Below, piece after piece: positions 8,713-23,860 of a stretch of DNA of 29,824 nt (position 1 is its first letter; each line of letters starts with the position of its first letter). Position numbers and translations under genes: made by a program. Origin of the DNA: a virus (Duplodnaviria > Heunggongvirae > Uroviricota > Caudoviricetes); IMG/VR virus record IMGVR_UViG_2609459820_000011, positions 1-29,824 of that record. One strand, 5' to 3'. The notes beneath the pieces are model-generated. The model did no database searches. It was not told where the DNA came from and was given only the letters and a program-made list of their open reading frames with translations.

Positions 8713-8908
8713 CAACATCAATAACGGGGAGCTGTTTCGCATAAAACGGCTCCGAAACATCCAAGAACAGTTCTAAAGATATCAGCAGCTATATGATCAT
8801 TTCAAGACCAAATATTGATTCTGCAATTCCGGGACGTTACACTGCTCAGGCACCTTATAAAGCGGGTGCCGGGCGTGGAAACCCGAAATTCAATATAGAG
8901 CACAACCG

Positions 8909-8932
8909 CGCTCATGCGGTTTTTTCGTGTCA
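8909..8932 (+). terminator. Candidate intrinsic terminator inside the long ORF upstream of the second Rha gene
   Basis: ACCGCG ctca TGCGGT stem followed by TTTTTCG. Confidence 0.35.
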
Positions 8933-9095
8933 TGAGCATCGTTACGCCCAAATTATGGTGGGGCGTGCAGGGCCAACTTCGGTTGGGCCGGGTTCTATGT
9001 TGACCGGTATTTCCACCCCTGTACGTCTCACCACCTATATGGTCGTGGAAAGCCTTGGTGGTGAGTTCATTGAATTCAACATAGGGGCTGTCACC

Positions 9096-14779: not shown

Positions 14780-14964
14780 GGTGGAATGGGTACAAAAGCG
14801 CATGACCTTTTTGTGTTGCCTTTGTGCAGAAAACACCATGACGGACTGCATGCGGATACCGTGGCATTTGAAGAGAAGTATGGTTCCCAACTGGAGCTGA
14901 TATTTCGTTTTATCGATCGCGCGCTGGCGATTGGTGTGCTGTCCTGATTTTGTGGAGAAAGTTG

Positions 14965-15348
14965 ATGCGTGATATTCAGATGGTTCTCGAACGCTGGGGA
15001 GCATGGGCGGCAAATAATCATGAGGATGTGACCTGGTCGTCCATTGCTGCCGGTTTTAAGGGATTAATTCCTTCAAAAGTAAAATCTCGCCCGCAATGTT
15101 GTGACGATGACGCGATGATCATTTGCGGGTGCATGGCCCGTCTGAAAAAGAACAACAGCGATTTACACGATTTATTAGTAGATTATTATGTATGTGGTAT
15201 GACATTCATGTCACTGGCAAGTAAGCATTGCTGCTCGGATGGTTATATCGGGAAAAGGTTACAGAAGGCTGAGGGCATAATTGAAGGGATGTTAATGGCA
15301 TTAGATATCCGGTTAGATATGGATATCGTTGCTAATAATTCTAATTGA
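14965..15348 (+). CDS. quuD: Late antiterminator Q (QuuD-like)
   Basis: 127 aa from [22 protein letters not shown] with GGAGA RBS; recognised from memory as the DLP12-type Q. Confidence 0.8.
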
Positions 15349-15484
15349 TATGCAATTGTTTACTAAAAGTTATTAAAAATGGGGCGTGGAAACGCCCCCA
15401 AATAAAGGGTAATATATAACAGAAGGTTTATATAGTAAGAAGCAAGGTAGTGCTTCTAAAGGAAGTGGCTTGAGGGCTCCACTT

Positions 15485-15526
15485 ATATGTTGCGGAGGCA
15501 AAGCCTCCCGCAACATATCTTTTTCG
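15485..15526 (+). terminator. Strong hairpin plus T-run downstream of Q (tR'-like), also lying 10-18 nt beyond the nmpC stop
   Basis: ATATGTTGCGGAGG caaag CCTCCCGCAACATAT followed by CTTTTTCG. Confidence 0.5.
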
Positions 15527-15535
15527 TAAGTCAGA

Positions 15536-16618
15536 TTAGAACTGATAAACCAGACCTACAGCGACGATGTCGTCGGTATCAATACCAGCTGTTTTGGTAA
15601 ACTTACTATCGTCAATTAAGTTGATTTTGTAATCAACAAAAGTGGACATGTTTTTATTAAAGTAGTAAGTAGCACCGACATCGACATACTTGACTAAGTC
15701 TCGGTCACCATGAACACCAAGGTCTTTACCTTTTGACTGAAGGTAAGCAACAGATGGGCGCAGACCGAAGTCAAACTGATATTGTGCTACTGCTTCAAAG
15801 TTTTGTGCTTTGTTTGCAATATGGTTATTACCAAAAACGGTCATATTCTGAGTTTCAGAATATGTGGTAGCCAGATAGATATTGTTCGCATCATATTTCA
15901 GGCCTGCAGCCCATACTTCCGCATTTTTGCCGGAGGCATTGAATTTGCTCTTACCATAGGCGACCTGACCGTCAGTGCGATCTGATTTAGCATAGGTTGC
16001 ACCCACGCCGAATCCTTCATACTCATAAGTAGTGGAGAAACCGAAACCATCACCATTGGCTTCAGCTACGTCAGTGCGGTCATTTTTACCCTGATACTGA
16101 GCAGCAAAGTTCAGGCCATCGACCAGACCAAAGAAGTCGTTGTTACGATAAGTTGCAACACCAGTTGCACGTTGAGTCATGAACACGTCGGTTTGAGTCC
16201 AAGTGTCACCACCGAATTCTGGCAGGACGTCAGTCCACGCACCGATGTCGTATGCTACACCGAAGTTACGGCCGTAATCGATTGAGCCGTAATCACCAAA
16301 TTTCAGGCCTGCAAATGCAAGACGGGTTTTGTCTTTGGAAGAACCTTGAGATTCAGCACGGTTGCCTTTGAAGTCATATTCCCACTGACCGAACCCAGTC
16401 AGTTGATCGTTGATTTGGGTTTCACCTTTGAAGCCAAGACGGGCATAAGTAGTATCACCATCATCTGCATCATTAGAGGAGAAGTAGTGCTTGGCATTAA
16501 CTTTCCCGTATAGATCCAGCTTGTTACTGTCTTTATTATAAATTTCAGCTGCCTGAGCAGACATCGCCATCAGTACTGATGCAGCTACAGCAGAAATTGC
16601 CACTGTTAATTTTTTCAT
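15536..16618 (-). CDS. nmpC: Outer membrane porin, OmpC/OmpF family, NmpC/OmpD type (intact; 360-aa precursor)
   Basis: Signal peptide [23 protein letters not shown]; [16 protein letters not shown] porin N-terminus; C-terminal ...AVGLVYQF; AAGGG RBS; AT-rich upstream region. Confidence 0.9.
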
Positions 16619-17044
16619 TGTACGCCCTTTTTTTGAACTATTATAAAAAAATGATGTCACTGCGCGATAAATATTCATCTAATCAATGTGATTATTTCAA
16701 GATGTAAGTTTTAGTTTCTCATTTAATTTGTGAAGTAGATCTCTATTTTTATCTGAACCTTTTCTATCTAATCCTATTCATGGCTCTTGTTTGAACAAAA
16801 ATAAATCTATTAGCTAATTTATATTAATGGCACTTATTTATAAGTAGTCTATAATTCTTTAGCTTAATTTAAACAAACTAAAAATAACATCCGAAATTAT
16901 TTATTGGTTATTTGTTGAAGTTTTCTTATGTATTTGTGGTGGTGTTTTGAACACTCGGTGGCATTCTCACAAATATCATTTAGTAGTTTACGTACGTAAA
17001 AAATTGGTTATGCTGTTAAGAGTAGTTACTTCGTCACACAGCTT

Positions 17045-17070
17045 AAACCCGCCGATGAGCGGTTTTTTTT
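17045..17070 (+). terminator. Candidate intrinsic terminator (short GC stem plus T8)
   Basis: AAACCCGC cgatga GCGGTTTTTTTT. Confidence 0.35.
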
Positions 17071-17407
17071 GTGCCTGAACGTTAAATGCGCTGGTGGTTG
17101 TGAATGCCGACTGCGGCGGTATTTTGGCGTGACGGCGCAGGTGCCGTATACCGATGTCTGGACGCATAAACCGGTGCAGTTCTATCCCGGGAAACATCCG
17201 TGCGAAAAACCGGCAGAAATGCTGCAGCAGATAATCAGCGCTAGCAGTCGTCCGGGTGACCTGATTGCAGATTTTTTCATGGGGTCGGGTTCGACAGTGA
17301 AAGCGGCACTGGCGCTCGGGCGTCGTGCAATTGGCGTTGAGCTGGAGACTGAACGTTTTGAGCAGACGGTTCGGGAAGTACAGGATTTAGTCAGCCAGAA
17401 CGGATGA
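17069..17407 (+). pseudogene. C-terminal remnant of a beta-class N6-adenine/N4-cytosine DNA methyltransferase; no credible start and the N-terminal DPPY region is missing
   Basis: HPCEKPAEMLQQIISASSRPGDLIADFFMGSGSTVKAALALGRRAIGVE matches the C-terminal HP..KP and FxGSG(S/T)T motifs; ORF opens with TTG right after a T-run; first ATG leaves only 63 codons. Confidence 0.55.
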
Positions 17408-17447
17408 TATTGAAGAATTAATTACGCGTCGTTATTATGCGGCTCCC

Positions 17448-17523
17448 GGCCCTTTAGCTCAGTGGTGAGAGCGAGCGACTCATAATCGCCAGGTCGCTGG
17501 TTCAAATCCAGCAAGGGCCACCA
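17448..17523 (+). tRNA. ileZ: tRNA-Ile2 (anticodon CAU, ileX/ileZ-like) with encoded CCA
   Basis: Folded by hand: acceptor GGCCCTT/AAGGGCC, D-arm GCTC-AGTGGTGA-GAGC, anticodon loop CTCATAA, T-loop TTCAAAT, 3' CCA; very similar to E. coli ileX from memory. Confidence 0.85.
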
Positions 17524-17623
17524 TCACAAACCGCCATTAGCTTATCAGGAAGAGCAGACGACGCGATAACAGGGTTGTTGGTGCGGGGGCGGGTCCCCGA
17601 TGGCGGTCCATTATCGGTATTCA

Positions 17624-17697
17624 GCGTTGTTAGCTCAGCCGGACAGAGCAATTGCCTTCTAAGCAATCGGTCACTGGTTCGAATCCAGTACAGCGCG
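17624..17697 (+). tRNA. tRNA-Arg (anticodon UCU)
   Basis: Folded by hand: acceptor GCGTTGT/ACAGCGC (one G-U), anticodon stem ATTGC/GCAAT with loop CTTCTAA, T-arm ACTGG-TTCGAAT-CCAGT. Confidence 0.8.
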
Positions 17698-17837
17698 CTA
17701 TATTCATTCTTCCAGATTCCTTCCGGCAGAGCCTTATACTGAAATATACCTGGCTCAGGATATTGTTGAAAATATTATATGTTTGTCAAAAATAAAAGTT
17801 CTGTTAAGTATTGATTGAGTGTTTGTTATACGGTCTA

Positions 17838-18164
17838 ATGGTTTTTTCAGCATTAAATATTTATCATTCATATGGTGTGGGTAGAGTGAATATTGATGAG
17901 GCGTCGGGGTGTTTCATCCTTAGGCAGCGTATTGATATAGTCAATGCAGCACGAGCAAAGGCCTTCAGCCGTTTGACAGTTTTGTTCTGTACTCCTGATC
18001 GTCTTTCGGGAAGAGACGTTATTATTCTGAATAGTGATGCTATTCAGAGGGTTTGCGATGAGTTCATGGTTGCTAATTCAGAATTATTTGCTCTTGTTCA
18101 GGAGTACAACAGAATAGCCAGGACCTGTGGTATGGATGAACTTCGGATTACTCATCTGGGGTAG
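17838..18164 (+). CDS. Hypothetical protein (108 aa from the first ATG; ORF opens at 17811 with TTG); poor translation signals
   Basis: ORF track; sits at the stx-equivalent position downstream of the tRNAs; no RBS seen. Confidence 0.3.
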   Translation: MVFSALNIYHSYGVGRVNIDEASGCFILRQRIDIVNAARAKAFSRLTVLFCTPDRLSGRDVIILNSDAIQRVCDEFMVANSELFALVQEYNRIARTCGMDELRITHLG

Positions 18165-18556
18165 ATACATATCTGGATTATCACTTGTTACGGTAAAAAG
18201 TGATTGCTTACTGTTTTTGTGAGTGGCATTGCAGCAGCCGGATAATGTCAGTGCTGGCTGACGGTGTGCTGGTGGCGGGTGTGGTGGTTGTTGCTTTCCC
18301 GTTGCTGAAAAAGAAAACGCCAGACTGTTAGCCGGGTATCAGTTAGCGGGAGAAATTTTTAAATACTTCACAATTCAGGCGGTTGACTGTTGTCTGGTTT
18401 GCGGGGAGTTTGTTAAAAGAAACTGGCATGGTGAATCCCCCTGTGCGGAGGGGCAATCAGCGAGTAGGTATATGGGATAATCGCGGATTCAGGTGCTGGT
18501 ACTGAATTCACCGGGAGGCACCCGGCACCATGCAATGGCACATAGCGCCACTCTCC

Positions 18557-18590
18557 AGCCCCTCTCCGGAGGGGCTGTTTATATTGATTT
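18557..18590 (+). terminator. Intrinsic terminator
   Basis: AGCCCCTC tccg GAGGGGCT followed by GTTTATATTGATTTT. Confidence 0.55.
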
Positions 18591-18611
18591 TGTCAGATGT
18601 GAGTAAACTCC

Positions 18612-18947
18612 TTATGGACTTTGTTGTTTTAGTCCATAAGGACATATTTGCAGAGTGCAACGGTTATTAAAGCATTCATTCAATACGTTATCTGTATTTG
18701 TAGGACATTCCTGGCTGTTTTTGATTAAATTCCAGAATGTTTTATTGAATGGTGCTACGTTGTAAATGGTTACAGGTAGCACTTTGTTATTGAGCATGAT
18801 ACCTGTGTGAGTCAGTGTAAATATACTTTCAGGAGGTAAGAAAGCATCCGATTGATACCAGATTATTAATTTTATTTTACTCCATATGACTGAAAAAGAT
18901 ATTCCGCATGATGGCTGGATAACTGTATCAATCACAATCCACTTCAT
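18612..18947 (-). CDS. Hypothetical Cys-containing protein (111 aa) in an AT-rich cargo segment, opposite to late transcription
   Basis: AAGGAAA RBS 5 nt upstream of the ATG; AT-rich upstream region 18950-19190. Confidence 0.5.
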
Positions 18948-19207
18948 TTAGTTTCCTTGTTTATGTCTTGCTGGTGATGTTCTGAAAAGTATAAATGATA
19001 TTTTTGAATGTAAACCATAGAGCAGAATTATTTTTCTGATGTTGTTTATTGTTTATTTAAATGCAGGGTGGTTTATATCTCGTCTTGTAGTTTATCCATG
19101 CATATCTGCTTGATGATGAGGTTTTTATTTAAGGTATGGTTTTGTGTTTTTTCTGTATTACATGTCAGGTATTTTAAAGAATTATTTTTCAGATGGTGGA
19201 AAGAACC

Positions 19208-21169
19208 ATGGCATTTAAACACTATGATGTTGTCAGGGCGGCATCGCCGTCAGACCTTGCGAAACGACTGACACAAAAACTGAAGGAGGGGTGGCAGCCA
19301 TTTGGCAGTCCGGTGGCCATCACGCCTTATACCCTGATGCAGGCCATTGCGGCGGAAGGTGATGTCACCACACCTGTGGTGGTGAAGCCGTCGGATGGAG
19401 AAGGCGCAGTTATCAGCACCACCAGCAACCCGGAGTATTACTTTGTTGTTGCCCTGGCCGGGCAGTCAAACGGTATGGCGTATGGTGAAGGGCTTCCGCT
19501 GCCGGAGACATATGACCGTCCGGACCCGCGTATTAAACAGCTGGCGCGTCGCAGCACTGTCACGCCGGGTGGTGCGTCCTGTAACTACAATGACATTATT
19601 CCTGCGGACCACTGCCTGCATGATGTTCAGGATTTGAGTAAGTTTTCACACCCGAAAGCCAGCGCAGCTCAGTATGGATGCGTGGGGCAGGGATTACATA
19701 TCGCGAAGAAATTGTTGCCGTTTATTCCGGCGAATGCCGGTATTCTTCTGGTTCCGTGCTGCCGTGGTGGTTCTGCATTTTTGGCGGGCGATGAAGGTAC
19801 CTTCAGCGAATCCACCGGCGCAAGCGAGACCTCGGCACGCTGGGGTGTTGATAAGCCACTGTACAAGGACCTGCTTACCCGTACTCAGGCCGCACTGAAG
19901 GCCAACCCTAAAAATATTCTGCTTGCAGTGGTCTGGATGCAGGGCGAGTTTGATTTGAAACAGGGTGCATACGCCACTCAGCCGGGGCTGTTTGATTCCA
20001 TGGTGGAAAAATATCGTTCTGACCTGTCGGAATTCGGAGGTCAGTGTCTCGGGGGCTCTCCGTCATCGGTTCCCTGGATTTGTGGCGACACGACCTACTA
20101 CTGGAAGCAGACTTATTCTTCGCAATACGATGCGGTGTATGGTGCATACAAGACGAAATCCGCAAAAAAAATCTTCTTTGTGCCGTTTATGACGGATGAA
20201 AACGGGCGAAATGTGGGTACCAACGAGCCGTCAGAAGATCCGGATGTTGCGGATATTGGGTATTACGGAGCCGGTGGTCGAACGGACGCCAAAACCTGGA
20301 CGACGGCCGACCGTAAAACGCATTTTGGATCATGGGCACGTCGTGGGATTATTTCCGACCGTCTGGCAACGGCGATTCTTGTGCATGCCGGGAGAAACGC
20401 TGAATTCATTACCGGAAAACAGCCTGATACGGTGAAGCCCACCGGACCTTCCGGTGAAGGTACGGAGAGAGAGCCGGAAGCCCCGGTCAGTAACCGAACC
20501 CTGATGAGTCTGCTGGCGTCCGGCGAAGACCTGGCATCACAGGGCTGGCGCTATTATCACAAACCGGCGAGCGGAGACAATGTTAACAAAAACATTGCTG
20601 AAGCGGTGGTCAGTGATGCGGGGGCTACGGGAGGTAAGGCCCTGCAACTGAATAAACCGGAAAACCACATCTGGTTTCTGGAGCATGATGCAGCCGGACA
20701 GGGAGTGGAGTTACTGAAGAAGGGGGGACGTGTGAGCGTACGGTTTAAGTTGCCGGGTTCACTGGTGCCGAATCAGTTTGCCCTGGGCATTTACTGGCAG
20801 TTGTCGTCCCTGCCGGAGGGAGTGACGCTGGCAGAGGAAGGCAACGACATGCTGATGTCCTTCTTTCTGCAGACGGATGCGACGAACCTGAACGCGATGC
20901 ACCACAAGAAGCCGAATGCGAAGCTGGAAACGTTCGGGGTCTTTGATAACGGATGGCACACACTGGCTTTTGAGTTTGCCGGAAACAACAGCATTCAGGT
21001 GACGCCGGTACTGGATGAGAAACGGGGGACGCCGTTCACACTGGTGAAATCTCCGGCATCAGGGGCGGCGGACAAACTGCAACTGACAGGCATATCAAAG
21101 GCGGCGACATATACGCTGCTGATTGACAGTGTGAAGGTGGAAGTGAACAACGCGGACATCGCGGCATGA
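19208..21169 (+). CDS. nanS-p: Prophage NanS-p-type sialate O-acetylesterase (DUF1737 N-terminal domain plus SGNH/SASA esterase domain plus C-terminal domain)
   Basis: N-terminus MAFKHYDVVRAASPSDLAKRLTQKLKEGWQPFG; GQSN esterase motif (VALAGQSNGMAYGE); position upstream of the holin, as in Stx-type phages. Confidence 0.8.
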   Translation: MAFKHYDVVRAASPSDLAKRLTQKLKEGWQPFGSPVAITPYTLMQAIAAEGDVTTPVVVKPSDGEGAVISTTSNPEYYFVVALAGQSNGMAYGEGLPLPETYDRPDPRIKQLARRSTVTPGGASCNYNDIIPADHCLHDVQDLSKFSHPKASAAQYGCVGQGLHIAKKLLPFIPANAGILLVPCCRGGSAFLAGDEGTFSESTGASETSARWGVDKPLYKDLLTRTQAALKANPKNILLAVVWMQGEFDLKQGAYATQPGLFDSMVEKYRSDLSEFGGQCLGGSPSSVPWICGDTTYYWKQTYSSQYDAVYGAYKTKSAKKIFFVPFMTDENGRNVGTNEPSEDPDVADIGYYGAGGRTDAKTWTTADRKTHFGSWARRGIISDRLATAILVHAGRNAEFITGKQPDTVKPTGPSGEGTEREPEAPVSNRTLMSLLASGEDLASQGWRYYHKPASGDNVNKNIAEAVVSDAGATGGKALQLNKPENHIWFLEHDAAGQGVELLKKGGRVSVRFKLPGSLVPNQFALGIYWQLSSLPEGVTLAEEGNDMLMSFFLQTDATNLNAMHHKKPNAKLETFGVFDNGWHTLAFEFAGNNSIQVTPVLDEKRGTPFTLVKSPASGAADKLQLTGISKAATYTLLIDSVKVEVNNADIAA

Positions 21170-21771: not shown

Positions 21772-21847
21772 GCCTGCGCAAGGGACCATCGGTGTGTGCC
21801 GGTGGTCTTTATATTGTTGTGAGCTTCCGGATAACGGGAGACGGGGT

Positions 21848-22063
21848 ATGTACCAGATGGAAAAAATCACAACAGGTGTGTCATACACCACGTCAGCGGT
21901 GGGAACGGGCTACTGGTTCCTGCAGTTGCTGGACAGGGTTTCCCCGTCTCAGTGGGCGGCAATAGGCGTGCTGGGGAGTCTGCTGTTTGGGCTGCTGACG
22001 TACCTGACTAACCTGTATTTCAAAATCAAAGAGGACCGGCGTAAGGCGGCGCGGGGAGAGTAA
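21848..22063 (+). CDS. Class II holin, phage 21 S-like (pinholin type) with dual start motif (Met1/Met4)
   Basis: 71 aa [10 protein letters not shown]...[50 protein letters not shown]; two TM segments; GGAGACGGGG RBS; resembles S21 from memory. Confidence 0.85.
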
Positions 22064-22067
22064 AGTG

Positions 22068-22874
22068 ATGAATAAAAAATATGAACTGGTTGTTAAGGGG
22101 ATAAATAATTACGGGGATAAGGTTACTGTTACTGTGAAGCCGGAAGGTGACGGGCAAGCGTCGCTGTTGTTGCCAGATGTGGCGATTAGTCTTGACCGTA
22201 CTGAAGGTGCCACGCTGGAGTTTTACGAAGCTGAGGCGAAAAAGCAGGCGAAGCAGTTTTTCATGGATGTTGCTGCCGGGTTATGTGAATGGAACGAACC
22301 GTTGCCGGAAAAGCGCCCCGTAATTTTAGAGGCGCAGGATGTGTTGATAACCTACAAAGGAAAGCTACCGGGAAGAATTACTTGTTCTCTGAAGATGCCG
22401 CCGTCAACACTGCGGTCAGAAAAAGAGGCGTCTTGTCTGCAGTCTGAGTACTCCATTACGGTTAAAAGTGCCGGAGAGGAAGGAAATAAACGTTATTTTA
22501 TTGCGTCTGCACCTGATAAAGATCAGGAATGGGAGTGTAACCGGCCATCCTTTGTTGTATACGGAGATGGCGGGAAAATAACCATCTCAGAAAATGGGAA
22601 ATTAACACCGCCATCGCACCAGCATAGTGAGGCGCTCATTGAATTTGCCATTGATTACCTGAAGAACAATAAAAAGCAGGGGCTGATGAAGCGCATTGGT
22701 CGTTGCATGGGATATCTGCAGGTAGCAGCTGAGATTGAAATGATGGCCAGTGGTGCTGACAATGATGCAGTTGTGCTGGAGGCTCTTCTGCGTGATTTTG
22801 ATAATACGCCCTTTAAGAAAGCACCTGTTGACTGGATGCAGCCGGGGATGACTTATCTGAAAGGGCGTATATAA
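22068..22874 (+). CDS. Hypothetical soluble protein (268 aa) inserted between holin and endolysin
   Basis: ATG 5 nt after the holin stop with GGAGAG RBS; no TM segment; no recognisable motif. Confidence 0.6.
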   Translation: MNKKYELVVKGINNYGDKVTVTVKPEGDGQASLLLPDVAISLDRTEGATLEFYEAEAKKQAKQFFMDVAAGLCEWNEPLPEKRPVILEAQDVLITYKGKLPGRITCSLKMPPSTLRSEKEASCLQSEYSITVKSAGEEGNKRYFIASAPDKDQEWECNRPSFVVYGDGGKITISENGKLTPPSHQHSEALIEFAIDYLKNNKKQGLMKRIGRCMGYLQVAAEIEMMASGADNDAVVLEALLRDFDNTPFKKAPVDWMQPGMTYLKGRI

Positions 22875-22883
22875 GGTGGCTCG

Positions 22884-23198
22884 TTATCTGTTGCTGGATA
22901 ATCGACTGAAGATGCGTTCTTTTTGTGTTTTTGCGTAATGATTGTCCCACTCACAATCAAGGTAGCTTAATTCTTCATTCAACCAGTTATTTATATTGGT
23001 CTTAATACGCATAAGCATGGGCTGTGTTAATGCTCTGGCGATAATGCCGAGAGTCACAGGTGTGAGATGTCCATACGGCTCAGCCTGAATGGATTTTACT
23101 GCATCGTGTTCTTGTGGGAGGAGTAAGAGGCACTCTGATTTTACCCGCTCATTTATGGCTTGCAGGCATAAATCATAATTATGTTGATCGTTATGCAT
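22884..23198 (-). CDS. Hypothetical protein (104 aa), convergent with the preceding gene and antisense to late transcription
   Basis: AGAGGA RBS 7 nt upstream of the ATG; stop is 9 nt from the stop of the 268-aa gene. Confidence 0.5.
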   Translation of the reverse strand: MHNDQHNYDLCLQAINERVKSECLLLLPQEHDAVKSIQAEPYGHLTPVTLGIIARALTQPMLMRIKTNINNWLNEELSYLDCEWDNHYAKTQKERIFSRLSSNR

Positions 23199-23326: not shown

Positions 23327-23860
23327 ATGAACACCAAAATCAAATATGGCCTGTCGGCTGCCGTTCTGGCGTTGATTGCCATCGGTGCGCCTGCGCCTGA
23401 TATTCTCGACCAGTTTCTGGATGAAAAAGAAGGTAACCACACAACGGCATACCGTGATGGTGCGGGTATCTGGACCATCTGCCGCGGTGCCACAATGGTG
23501 GATGGTAAACCTGTTATTCCGGGCATGAAACTGTCGAAGGAAAAATGCGACCAGGTTAATGCCATTGAACGGGATAAGGCGCTGGCATGGGTGGAGCGCA
23601 ATATTAAAGTTCCACTGACCGAACCACAGAAAGCGGGTATAGCGTCATTCTGTCCCTATAACATTGGCCCCGGTAAGTGTTTCCCGTCGACGTTTTATAA
23701 GCGGCTGAATGCTGGTGACCGCAGGGGAGCGTGTGAGGCGATTCGCTGGTGGATTAAGGACGGTGGCAGGGACTGCCGTATTCGCTCAAATAACTGTTAC
23801 GGTCAGGTATCCCGTCGTGACCAGGAGAGCGCGCTGGCGTGCTGGGGAATCGACAGATAA
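23327..23860 (+). CDS. R: SAR endolysin (GH24 lysozyme with N-terminal signal-anchor-release domain)
   Basis: N-terminal hydrophobic YGLSAAVLALIAIGAPA; catalytic-region motif EGNHTTAYRDGAGIWTICRG. Confidence 0.85.
   Translation: MNTKIKYGLSAAVLALIAIGAPAPDILDQFLDEKEGNHTTAYRDGAGIWTICRGATMVDGKPVIPGMKLSKEKCDQVNAIERDKALAWVERNIKVPLTEPQKAGIASFCPYNIGPGKCFPSTFYKRLNAGDRRGACEAIRWWIKDGGRDCRIRSNNCYGQVSRRDQESALACWGIDR

Follow-up and report, generated by a model that had tools for sequence, protein, structure and literature searches.

The subject of this analysis is a 1,491-bp interval (positions 17700-19190) of IMG/VR virus record IMGVR_UViG_2609459820_000011, a stretch of 29,824 nucleotides (nt) that is referred to below, at its full length, as the window. 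The interval lies between two tRNA genes and a gene for a NanS-p-type esterase, and its placement in the Q-to-lysis "moron" region of a lambdoid prophage is supported. It is very probably a mosaic region of an Escherichia coli prophage late operon, assembled from four independent modules that had each been catalogued before. An earlier reading made from the letters alone (the sequence-only reading) had described it as an AT-rich cargo segment at the position where Shiga toxin (Stx) phages carry their toxin genes, with no feature, open reading frames (ORFs) included, of recognizable function. The features it listed are present at, or a few bases from, the positions it gave, as judged from an ORF table, a tRNA scan and a terminator scan, and homology searches place them in families well beyond chance (Pfam, NCBIfam and PHROG matches with E values from 1e-13 to 4e-73). 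The lack of recognizable function does not hold: by sequence identity, the minus-strand protein of 111 amino acids (aa) is IraL, an anti-adaptor of RssB, and the hairpin-rich stretch is an STnc100-family small RNA (sRNA). At the level of families it fails as well, with the hydrophobic peptide belonging to Pfam DUF3927 and the first ORF to PHROG 2873. The features of the interval and its immediate flanks are as follows.

17448-17523, plus strand: tRNA with a CAU anticodon (ileZ-type tRNA-Ile2), left-hand shared backbone (ARAGORN; Rfam tRNA, 72.5 bits)
17624-17698, plus strand: tRNA-Arg (UCU), final backbone element left of the cargo slot (ARAGORN; Rfam, 68 bits)
17714-18355, no strand: cargo cassette of 642 bp at the stx2AB position (blastn block boundaries and junction alignment)
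17886-18164, plus strand: gene for a 92-aa protein, GTG start, PHROG 2873 (phrog_2873 match, conserved start and stop, substitution ratios)
18200-18331, plus strand: DUF3927/TciB-like protein of 43 aa, GTG start (Pfam PF13064, phrog_1470, PGAP WP_000562553.1)
18397-18586, plus strand: STnc100-family sRNA (Rfam RF02076), homologue of EcOnc27/sRNA103 and related to PasD
18612-18947, minus strand: iraL, RssB anti-adaptor of the IraM/IraL family, 111 aa (identity to CFT073 iraL, NCBIfam, PDB)
18948-19016, minus strand: iraL 5' untranslated region (UTR; 33 nt) and sigma-70-type promoter, with start at 18980, -10 element TATACT at 18988-18993 and -35-like TTTACA at 19009-19014
19043-19059, plus strand: PhoP-box-like direct repeat TGTTTA-N5-TATTTA with one mismatch, at -63 to -79 of iraL (pattern search)
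19193-21169, plus strand: NanS-p-type sialate O-acetylesterase (DUF1737, SASA and DUF6645), right-hand backbone (Pfam; PGAP "SASA family carbohydrate esterase")

The interval is poorer in GC than the window as a whole (39.2% versus 48.7%), as had been proposed, but its composition is not uniform. By sub-block, GC content is 31% (17700-17885), 44% (17886-18164), 48% (18165-18355), 51% (18356-18590), 35% (18591-18947) and 29% (18948-19192), so that both ends are at 29-35% and the centre at 44-51%. At least 16 complete E. coli chromosomes carry the interval with 100% identity, and 80% or more of its length is covered in 863 of 5,426 complete E. coli genomes. RefSeq annotation over these positions consists of a DUF3927 family protein, a partial hypothetical pseudogene and an "anti-adapter protein IraM".

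The iraL gene and its CFT073 counterpart

The minus-strand gene at 18612-18947 is nearly indistinguishable from iraL of the uropathogenic E. coli strain CFT073, with 110 of 111 residues and 333 of 336 nucleotides (99.1%) identical. PMC4045071 sorts iraL and iraM into two sequence classes that do not overlap, with an identity of at least 95% inside each, and a gene belongs to the iraL class when it is at least 95% identical to CFT073 iraL across the coding region; the window gene lies above that value. K-12 IraM (YcgW, encoded beside the e14 element) belongs to the same family, with 63% identity and five conserved cysteines, and differs from the window protein in sequence class, genomic context and upstream region. 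Family membership is also indicated by the NCBIfam model NF007393 (IraM), which matches residues 1-110 at 162.4 bits (cutoff 121), and by the IraM chain of PDB entry 8twd (E 2.2e-32), a solved structure matched by the 78 conserved N-terminal residues that IraM and IraL have in common. In PADLOC, IraL gave only a chance-level match (E 0.05).

As the sequence-only reading had noted, this ORF is preceded by a good ribosome-binding site (AAGGA, 7 nt before the ATG) and by AT-rich DNA (29% GC over 18948-19192). The iraL mRNA of CFT073 begins with ACATCACCAGCAAGGCATAAACAAGGAAACCA, as mapped by rapid amplification of cDNA 5' ends (5'-RACE; PMC4045071). This sequence has a single match, at 18949-18980 on the minus strand with two mismatches (none expected by chance), and the iraL start site is therefore placed at 18980. 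Positions -100 to -1 of the gene are identical to CFT073 at 99 of 100 sites, above the 96% identity that defines an iraL-type promoter. Hryckowian et al. 2014 (PMC4045071) reported that CFT073 IraL, encoded by a gene then called ycgW, stabilizes sigma-S in exponential growth; the window protein is assumed to share this activity with the 99%-identical CFT073 allele.

The likeness to CFT073 extends over the entire interval. Its potB prophage carries the tRNAs, the 92-aa ORF, the DUF3927 gene, STnc100 and iraL in the same order, at 98.9% identity to the window across 17701-19190, within a series that runs Q, tRNAs, DUF3927 gene, IraM-annotated gene, nanS-p (esterase) remnant and holin. The mapped iraL start site and the -10 element are the same. 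The two loci differ in their surroundings and at one residue: CFT073 has three tRNAs and an IS200 upstream, a truncated nanS-p and valine at position 65 of IraL, whereas the window has two tRNAs, an upstream porin gene and methyltransferase fragment, an intact nanS-p and alanine at that position.

The end of iraL, from its last codons through the stop, is covered by a 12-bp perfect inverted repeat (TCCTTATGGACT/AGTCCATAAGGA) at 18610-18643, which may form a 3' hairpin of the iraL transcript. The repeat encodes a QQSP tail that is absent from K-12 IraM.

The slot equivalent to stx

Comparison by blastn with the Stx2 phages Min27 and Stx2_EH1910 shows homology that runs through the tRNAs to 17708, is interrupted and restarts at 18368. 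On the phage side, stx2A and stx2B sit inside this gap, and the restart point is about 45 nt past stx2B. Homology to the Stx2 phages and to the empty-site strain, NMBU_W05E18, stops just past tRNA-Arg, at 17708-17713. In NMBU_W05E18 (L010:5810-5832, L010:5873-6550), 21 bp take the place of 17714-18355 while the flanking backbone is 95-98% identical, which makes it an empty site; the vacant stx-type slot consists of these 21 bp between the last tRNA-Arg and STnc100. The phage moron concept (Juhala et al. 2000, as cited in PMC4104026) refers to extra DNA between genes that lie side by side in a related phage, and relative to NMBU_W05E18 the stretch 17714-18355 is such DNA. A moron would also have a promoter and a terminator of its own and a composition unlike that of its flanks. 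The GC content of the stretch is 31-48%, compared with 52-58% in the flanks, and the 3' hairpin of STnc100 is a terminator; a mapped promoter belongs to iraL, the plus-strand cargo having weak promoter-like matches only. Direct repeats flanking the cassette, as a sign of transposition-type insertion, were not found.

Because of the homology gap with the Stx2 phages and the empty site of NMBU_W05E18, the alignments confine the slot equivalent to stx to the 642-bp cassette with the 92-aa and DUF3927 genes. The proposal that the whole 1.5 kb is stx-equivalent thus applies to the left 0.64 kb and not to STnc100 and iraL. By the same comparisons, STnc100, the iraL/iraM-type gene and nanS-p are common backbone that some Stx2 phages carry too. 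In Min27 and Stx2_EH1910 the STnc100 family begins about 75 nt past stx2B, ahead of the esterase gene, and in Stx2_EH1910 an iraM-like gene (73% identical to window IraL) lies between STnc100 and nanS-p. Since both elements occur downstream of stx2B, they are neighbours of the toxin slot rather than alternatives to the toxin. The stx2AB moron of these phages (Tree et al. 2014, PMC4104026) and the window cassette share their insertion point, which is bounded by the last tRNA-Arg (left) and the STnc100 element (right). Their contents differ: the window cargo, at about 0.64 kb against about 1.37 kb, is unrelated to Stx, and the two small proteins that it encodes lack signal peptides.

The modules reassort freely. 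Strain EC571 has the 92-aa gene without the DUF3927-STnc100 stretch that follows it in the window, and phage vB_EcoS-640R1 matches the stretch with DUF3927, STnc100 and iraL but not the 92-aa gene. NMBU_W05E18 has a second STnc100 copy where the window carries iraL.

Genes of the cassette

The plus-strand ORF that ends at 18164 can be read as 117 aa from a TTG at 17811 or as 108 aa from an ATG at 17838. The sequence-only reading had reported the 108-aa version and its poor translation signals. The ORF and the weak signals are confirmed, but the conserved frame comprises 92 codons from a GTG at 17886, not 108; in the window allele the frame is open upstream to both earlier starts, and this extension is not conserved. 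Three alleles with 60-63% amino acid identity (window, EC571 and 2014C-3338) share the GTG start, the stop and all 92 codons without insertions or deletions (indels). Compared at a synonymous divergence (dS) of about 1, they give ratios of nonsynonymous to synonymous substitution (dN/dS) of 0.26-0.29 (about 0.27) in the coding frame and of 0.8-1.25 in the other two frames. The phrog_2873 profile, a family without assigned function, covers residues 1-92 with an E value of 5.6e-58. Given the conserved start, stop and length, the low dN/dS and the PHROG 2873 match, the 92-aa ORF is a real coding gene under purifying selection.

Protein searches recover intact copies of this gene in hundreds of assemblies, with alleles at 56-77% identity, and matching DNA is found in 1,183 of 5,426 complete E. 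coli genomes (about a fifth). An exhaustive profile search yields no more than 22 clusters, among them proteins of 91-106 aa whose identity is 21-41%. A genome-wide locus search for the family returns only three loci, from E. coli, a metagenome-assembled genome and Citrobacter braakii; the C. braakii relative lies in a prophage between tRNAs and lysis genes, beside a TerB-like gene. AlphaFold2 (AF2) modeling predicts a two-helix hairpin (pLDDT 83) with helices at residues 3-35 and 50-81. Pfam and NCBIfam scans assign no family to the protein, and PADLOC gives no match. A marginal match between the 92-aa profile and the N-terminal helix of GapR/UPF0335 in the PDB (E 0.055) was rejected, as it involves one helix only and the rest of the fold differs; moreover, no member of the 92-aa family matches any Pfam family below E 0.01.

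Some alleles may have a coupled leader ORF. In 2014C-3338 (L007:4990-5074), a separate ORF of 23 codons precedes the 92-aa gene, and its TGA overlaps the GTG start (GTGA). The corresponding stretch of the window is fused in frame (17811-17888).

The second gene of the cassette (18200-18331) encodes a 43-aa DUF3927/TciB-like protein. It includes the 28-aa hydrophobic peptide described earlier at 18245-18331, the quoted sequence of which is exact; the peptide is not a gene of its own but the C-terminal two thirds of the longer product. Pfam PF13064 matches the 43-aa version at 95.6 bits (cutoff 25), and phrog_1470 ("TciB-like") matches at an E value of 7.8e-13. A hydropathy scan shows a Cys-rich N-terminus, a single hydrophobic helix (about residues 15-36) and a KKK tail, and the product is predicted from this layout to be a single-pass membrane peptide. 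The gene differs from its CFT073 counterpart at three positions, all three of them third codon positions. Neither cassette protein has a signal peptide, and the N-terminus of the 92-aa protein is a hydrophilic helix. We infer that both small ORFs are expressed.

A close parallel to this arrangement is the tciA-tciB pair of Escherichia phage JLK-2012. It lies in the same slot, downstream of Q and tRNAs, and its DUF3927/TciB gene directly precedes an STnc100-matching stretch and an esterase gene. In JLK-2012 the peptide is preceded by the TerB-like tciA, in the window by the 92-aa PHROG 2873 gene, and the tRNAs are others.

The STnc100 small RNA

The plus-strand stretch 18397-18586 matches Rfam RF02076 over all 206 model positions and scores 132.4 bits, where the gathering score is 47 (E 3e-29). 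A closing stem and three internal hairpins make up its fold, together with an intrinsic terminator at 18556-18586, for which a terminator scan reports a 9-bp stem with 7 GC pairs (18556-18577) followed by TTTATATT, the T-run reaching 18586. Both the hairpin-rich stretch with its terminator and the suggestion of a short structured RNA ending there are thereby borne out. A consensus fold of eight STnc100 copies (from the window, the two Stx2 phages and strain 2014C-3338) has 34 pairs, nine of them with compensatory double changes. The window copy alone, which is 100% identical to that of CFT073, folds modestly better than shuffled sequence (z-score -1.9).

In the literature, the STnc100 element downstream of stx2B is the Hfq-bound sRNA EcOnc27 (sRNA103), and a 2026 preprint relates STnc100 to PasD, both being located upstream of a sialate esterase. 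Tree et al. 2014 (PMC4104026) described moron coding sequences (CDSs) downstream of PR', followed by convergent sRNAs and then a conserved phage ORF. The window element resembles EcOnc27/sRNA103 in its full-length model match, its position between cargo CDS and nanS-p, and its multi-hairpin fold with terminator. From this Stx2-phage homologue, we infer that the window RNA would be an Hfq-binding, trans-acting regulator. The Stx2-phage copies are about 70-77% identical to it in DNA sequence and differ in the 5' and central variable regions, so that the targets may differ. The convergent partner also differs, being the protein gene iraL in the window and the anti-sRNA AsxR/AgvB with the Stx2-phage copies; Rfam searches detected no AsxR/AgvB in the window.

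A conserved TTGACT at 18383-18388 was considered as the -35 element of STnc100 and rejected, as it has no acceptable -10 element at 16-19 nt. The RNA may be processed from longer transcripts.

Annotation and copy number of the element vary among strains. In SCU-172, CFT073 and NMBU_W05E18, PGAP places a partial "hypothetical protein" pseudogene antisense to STnc100 (18416-18541, minus strand), which is probably an annotation artefact over the RNA gene. In the late region of one prophage, strain 2014C-3338 (NZ_CP027452.1; L007:5639-6618, L007:3667-3879) carries STnc100 five times, with four of the copies head-to-tail directly before the esterase gene and just past the local allele of the 92-aa gene. 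This arrangement suggests that the sRNA/terminator unit is duplicated or imported with each cargo.

Flanking backbone and neighbouring genes

The left flank ends in the two tRNA genes. ARAGORN assigns the CAU tRNA to Met and PGAP assigns an identical gene to Ile; it is homologous to ileZ of Stx phages and lies within a block that is 86-91% identical between the window and the Stx2 phages. The order Q, two tRNAs, NanS-p given by the sequence-only reading is correct for the tRNAs and for the esterase gene at 19193, but Q is not adjacent to the tRNAs, as a porin gene and a methyltransferase fragment intervene. The neighbouring genes are the following.

14950-15348: Q (PF06530)
15536-16678, minus strand: full-length OmpC/NmpC-type porin gene, between Q and the tRNAs
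17069-17407: truncated DNA methyltransferase (N6/N4), C-terminal fragment, between Q and the tRNAs
21794-22063: holin
23327-23860: lysozyme

The methyltransferase fragment retains only the final 85 or so residues, and the region upstream of the porin gene (16700-17000) is 26% GC. A late transcript would have to traverse the porin gene in antisense orientation.

In the window and in SCU-172 there are two late-region tRNAs, with about 100 nt of sequence other than tRNA between them (17524-17623), whereas CFT073, NMBU_W05E18, Min27 and Stx2_EH1910 (both Stx2 phages examined) have three closely packed tRNAs. It appears that the middle tRNA-Arg was replaced or became degraded.

Two further regions of the window contain features of note. 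In the early region (8850-9038), an Rfam isrK match (61.6 bits) lies beside a C4 antisense RNA (82.4 bits), a pair that forms a P1/P7-type antirepressor control module. The gap between holin and lysozyme (22065-23198) holds a 269-aa ORF, followed by a 104-aa minus-strand ORF without a family. The DUF1327/YdfR match of the 269-aa ORF is limited to its first 100 or so residues, the remaining 170 or so having no family, and PADLOC returned no matches for either ORF.

Mosaic organization and proposed function

The interval is best described as four modules. The first (17714-18355) is an insertion at the stx2AB site that encodes a 92-aa helical hairpin and a 43-aa DUF3927/TciB-like membrane peptide. 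The second (18397-18586) is an STnc100 sRNA whose 3' hairpin is an intrinsic terminator. The third (18612-19016, minus strand) is iraL with its own sigma-70 promoter, and the fourth, comprising the tRNAs and nanS-p, the flanking backbone. The identities and boundaries of these modules, and the purifying selection, come from the present analysis, and the mechanism and start site of IraL come from the literature on a 99%-identical allele.

On the basis of work on the CFT073 allele, IraL is expected to bind RssB's N-terminal domain and to block delivery of sigma-S (RpoS) to ClpXP. It would thereby raise sigma-S in exponential growth, a lysogenic-conversion function. By analogy with the late operon of lambda, the STnc100 terminator would end transcripts made by polymerase not modified by Q, which would leave the cargo as an autonomous unit in the lysogen. 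After induction, Q-modified polymerase would read through to nanS-p and the lysis genes.

Several observations weigh against this account. The window IraL has A65 where the tested protein has V65, and 2 of the 33 positions in its 5' UTR are different. In the window allele of the 92-aa gene, GTG 17886 is preceded by a Shine-Dalgarno sequence that is weak, profile searches offer no functional clue for its product, and Foldseek comparison of the model with PDB and BFVD finds generic helical hairpins only and nothing at E <= 0.001. A scan and direct reading reveal no canonical sigma-70 promoter for the two small cassette ORFs, the plus-strand cargo showing weak promoter-like matches only (7 versus 4.6 expected), and no convincing one for STnc100. 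Finally, the exact series of Q, porin gene, methyltransferase fragment, tRNAs, cassette, STnc100 and iraL is contiguous in none of the 5,426 complete E. coli genomes, in which 14900-19200 was likewise not found in one piece. The locus context is a new mosaic made of known parts.

Alternative explanations

One alternative gives the cassette a larger role. The 92-aa helical-hairpin protein, alone or with the DUF3927 peptide, could be a new lysogenic-conversion or phage-exclusion factor at the stx site, a proposal that we regard as unlikely. Equally unlikely is the related view that the two genes form a functional module conferring a new phenotype on the lysogen, for which superinfection exclusion or anti-phage defence, colicin resistance, a membrane-active toxin and a cell-division inhibitor released upon induction are candidates; were it true, the slot would house a functional alternative to Shiga toxin. 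The module lies exactly at the stx2AB position, both ORFs are conserved, and either a TerB-like tciA or the 92-aa family comes before such peptides in other prophages. PHROGs also places the DUF3927 family in its moron category under the label [quoted passage not shown]. That label is an annotation, and a literature lookup on TciB and DUF3927 traced no experiment behind it. Nor is the linkage obligate: in EC571 the 92-aa gene is present and is not followed by the DUF3927-STnc100 stretch of the window, and in both vB_EcoS-640R1 and JLK-2012 the DUF3927 stretch is matched but the 92-aa gene is missing. PADLOC has no match for either protein, toxin and defence domains are absent, and the 92-aa protein has no signal peptide.

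It is unlikely, and slightly more so, that the minus-strand gene is an IraM orthologue, activated by PhoP and induced by Mg2+ starvation as in K-12, rather than an exponential-phase gene of the iraL type. RefSeq and NCBIfam do name it IraM, and the PhoP-box-like TGTTTA-N5-TATTTA lies at -63 to -79. The repeat is kept upstream of the iraM-like gene of phage Stx2_EH1910 (Stx2a), and there is no alignment with K-12 iraM. However, this candidate motif carries a mismatch and sits in AT-rich DNA, the protein is 99% identical to IraL as opposed to 63% to IraM, and the promoter shares 99% identity with the iraL promoter whereas the K-12 iraM upstream region aligns poorly. The two classes of PMC4045071 do not overlap and have at least 95% identity within each, which further favours assignment to iraL.

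It is very improbable that the first ORF (17811/17838-18164) is no gene at all, but a frame that happens to be open in an AT-rich spacer. The frame is not annotated in SCU-172, CFT073 or the 27 listed RefSeq genomes carrying the window allele, its translation signals in that allele are weak, and it has no Pfam or NCBIfam family. This explanation is contradicted by the codon-level evidence, namely a dN/dS of 0.26-0.29 against about 1 in the other two frames, in three alleles that at dS of about 1 retain a common GTG start and stop without indels. The PHROG 2873 match at 5.6e-58, the PGAP annotation of the EC571 homologue (WP_001017777.1), relatives of 91-106 aa down to 21% identity and a confident AF2 model also speak against it. 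The sequence-only reading had itself allowed for ORFs without conservation among related prophages; instead they are conserved, as seen in the dN/dS values of the 92-aa gene and the 95.6-bit match of the DUF3927 protein.

Its other reservation, that an Stx cassette once stood here and has decayed to the present segment, can practically be dismissed: position alone favours it, the ORFs at the locus are intact and subject to selection, a tblastn search with Stx2A and Stx2B gives no match to the interval with an E value under 3.5 and refutes it at the sensitivity of that search, and no Pfam domains of Stx A/B type (ribosome-inactivating protein A subunit, B-subunit pentamer) are present in the interval.

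Biological meaning

The reading as a mosaic moron region makes this locus largely ordinary and already known, as it is a near-identical copy of the studied iraL locus of CFT073, with an architecture described by Tree et al. 2014 (PMC4104026). It fits the published scheme for lambdoid morons, in which cargo CDSs are followed by an sRNA of the STnc100/EcOnc27 type, a convergent element and nanS-p. The value of the analysis is mainly that of a correction, in that an apparently unknown cargo at the toxin site turns out to be a near-copy of the CFT073 iraL locus. A useful point is that comparison with an empty site fixes the bounds of the stx-equivalent slot within a few bases (17714-18355). What novelty is left lies in the uncharacterized 92-aa gene within that slot, which is under purifying selection and is left unannotated by RefSeq in this allele. 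For the biology of the carriers, the consequence lies with iraL, which gives them more RpoS in exponential growth and so bears on the stress tolerance of extraintestinal E. coli, as already published.

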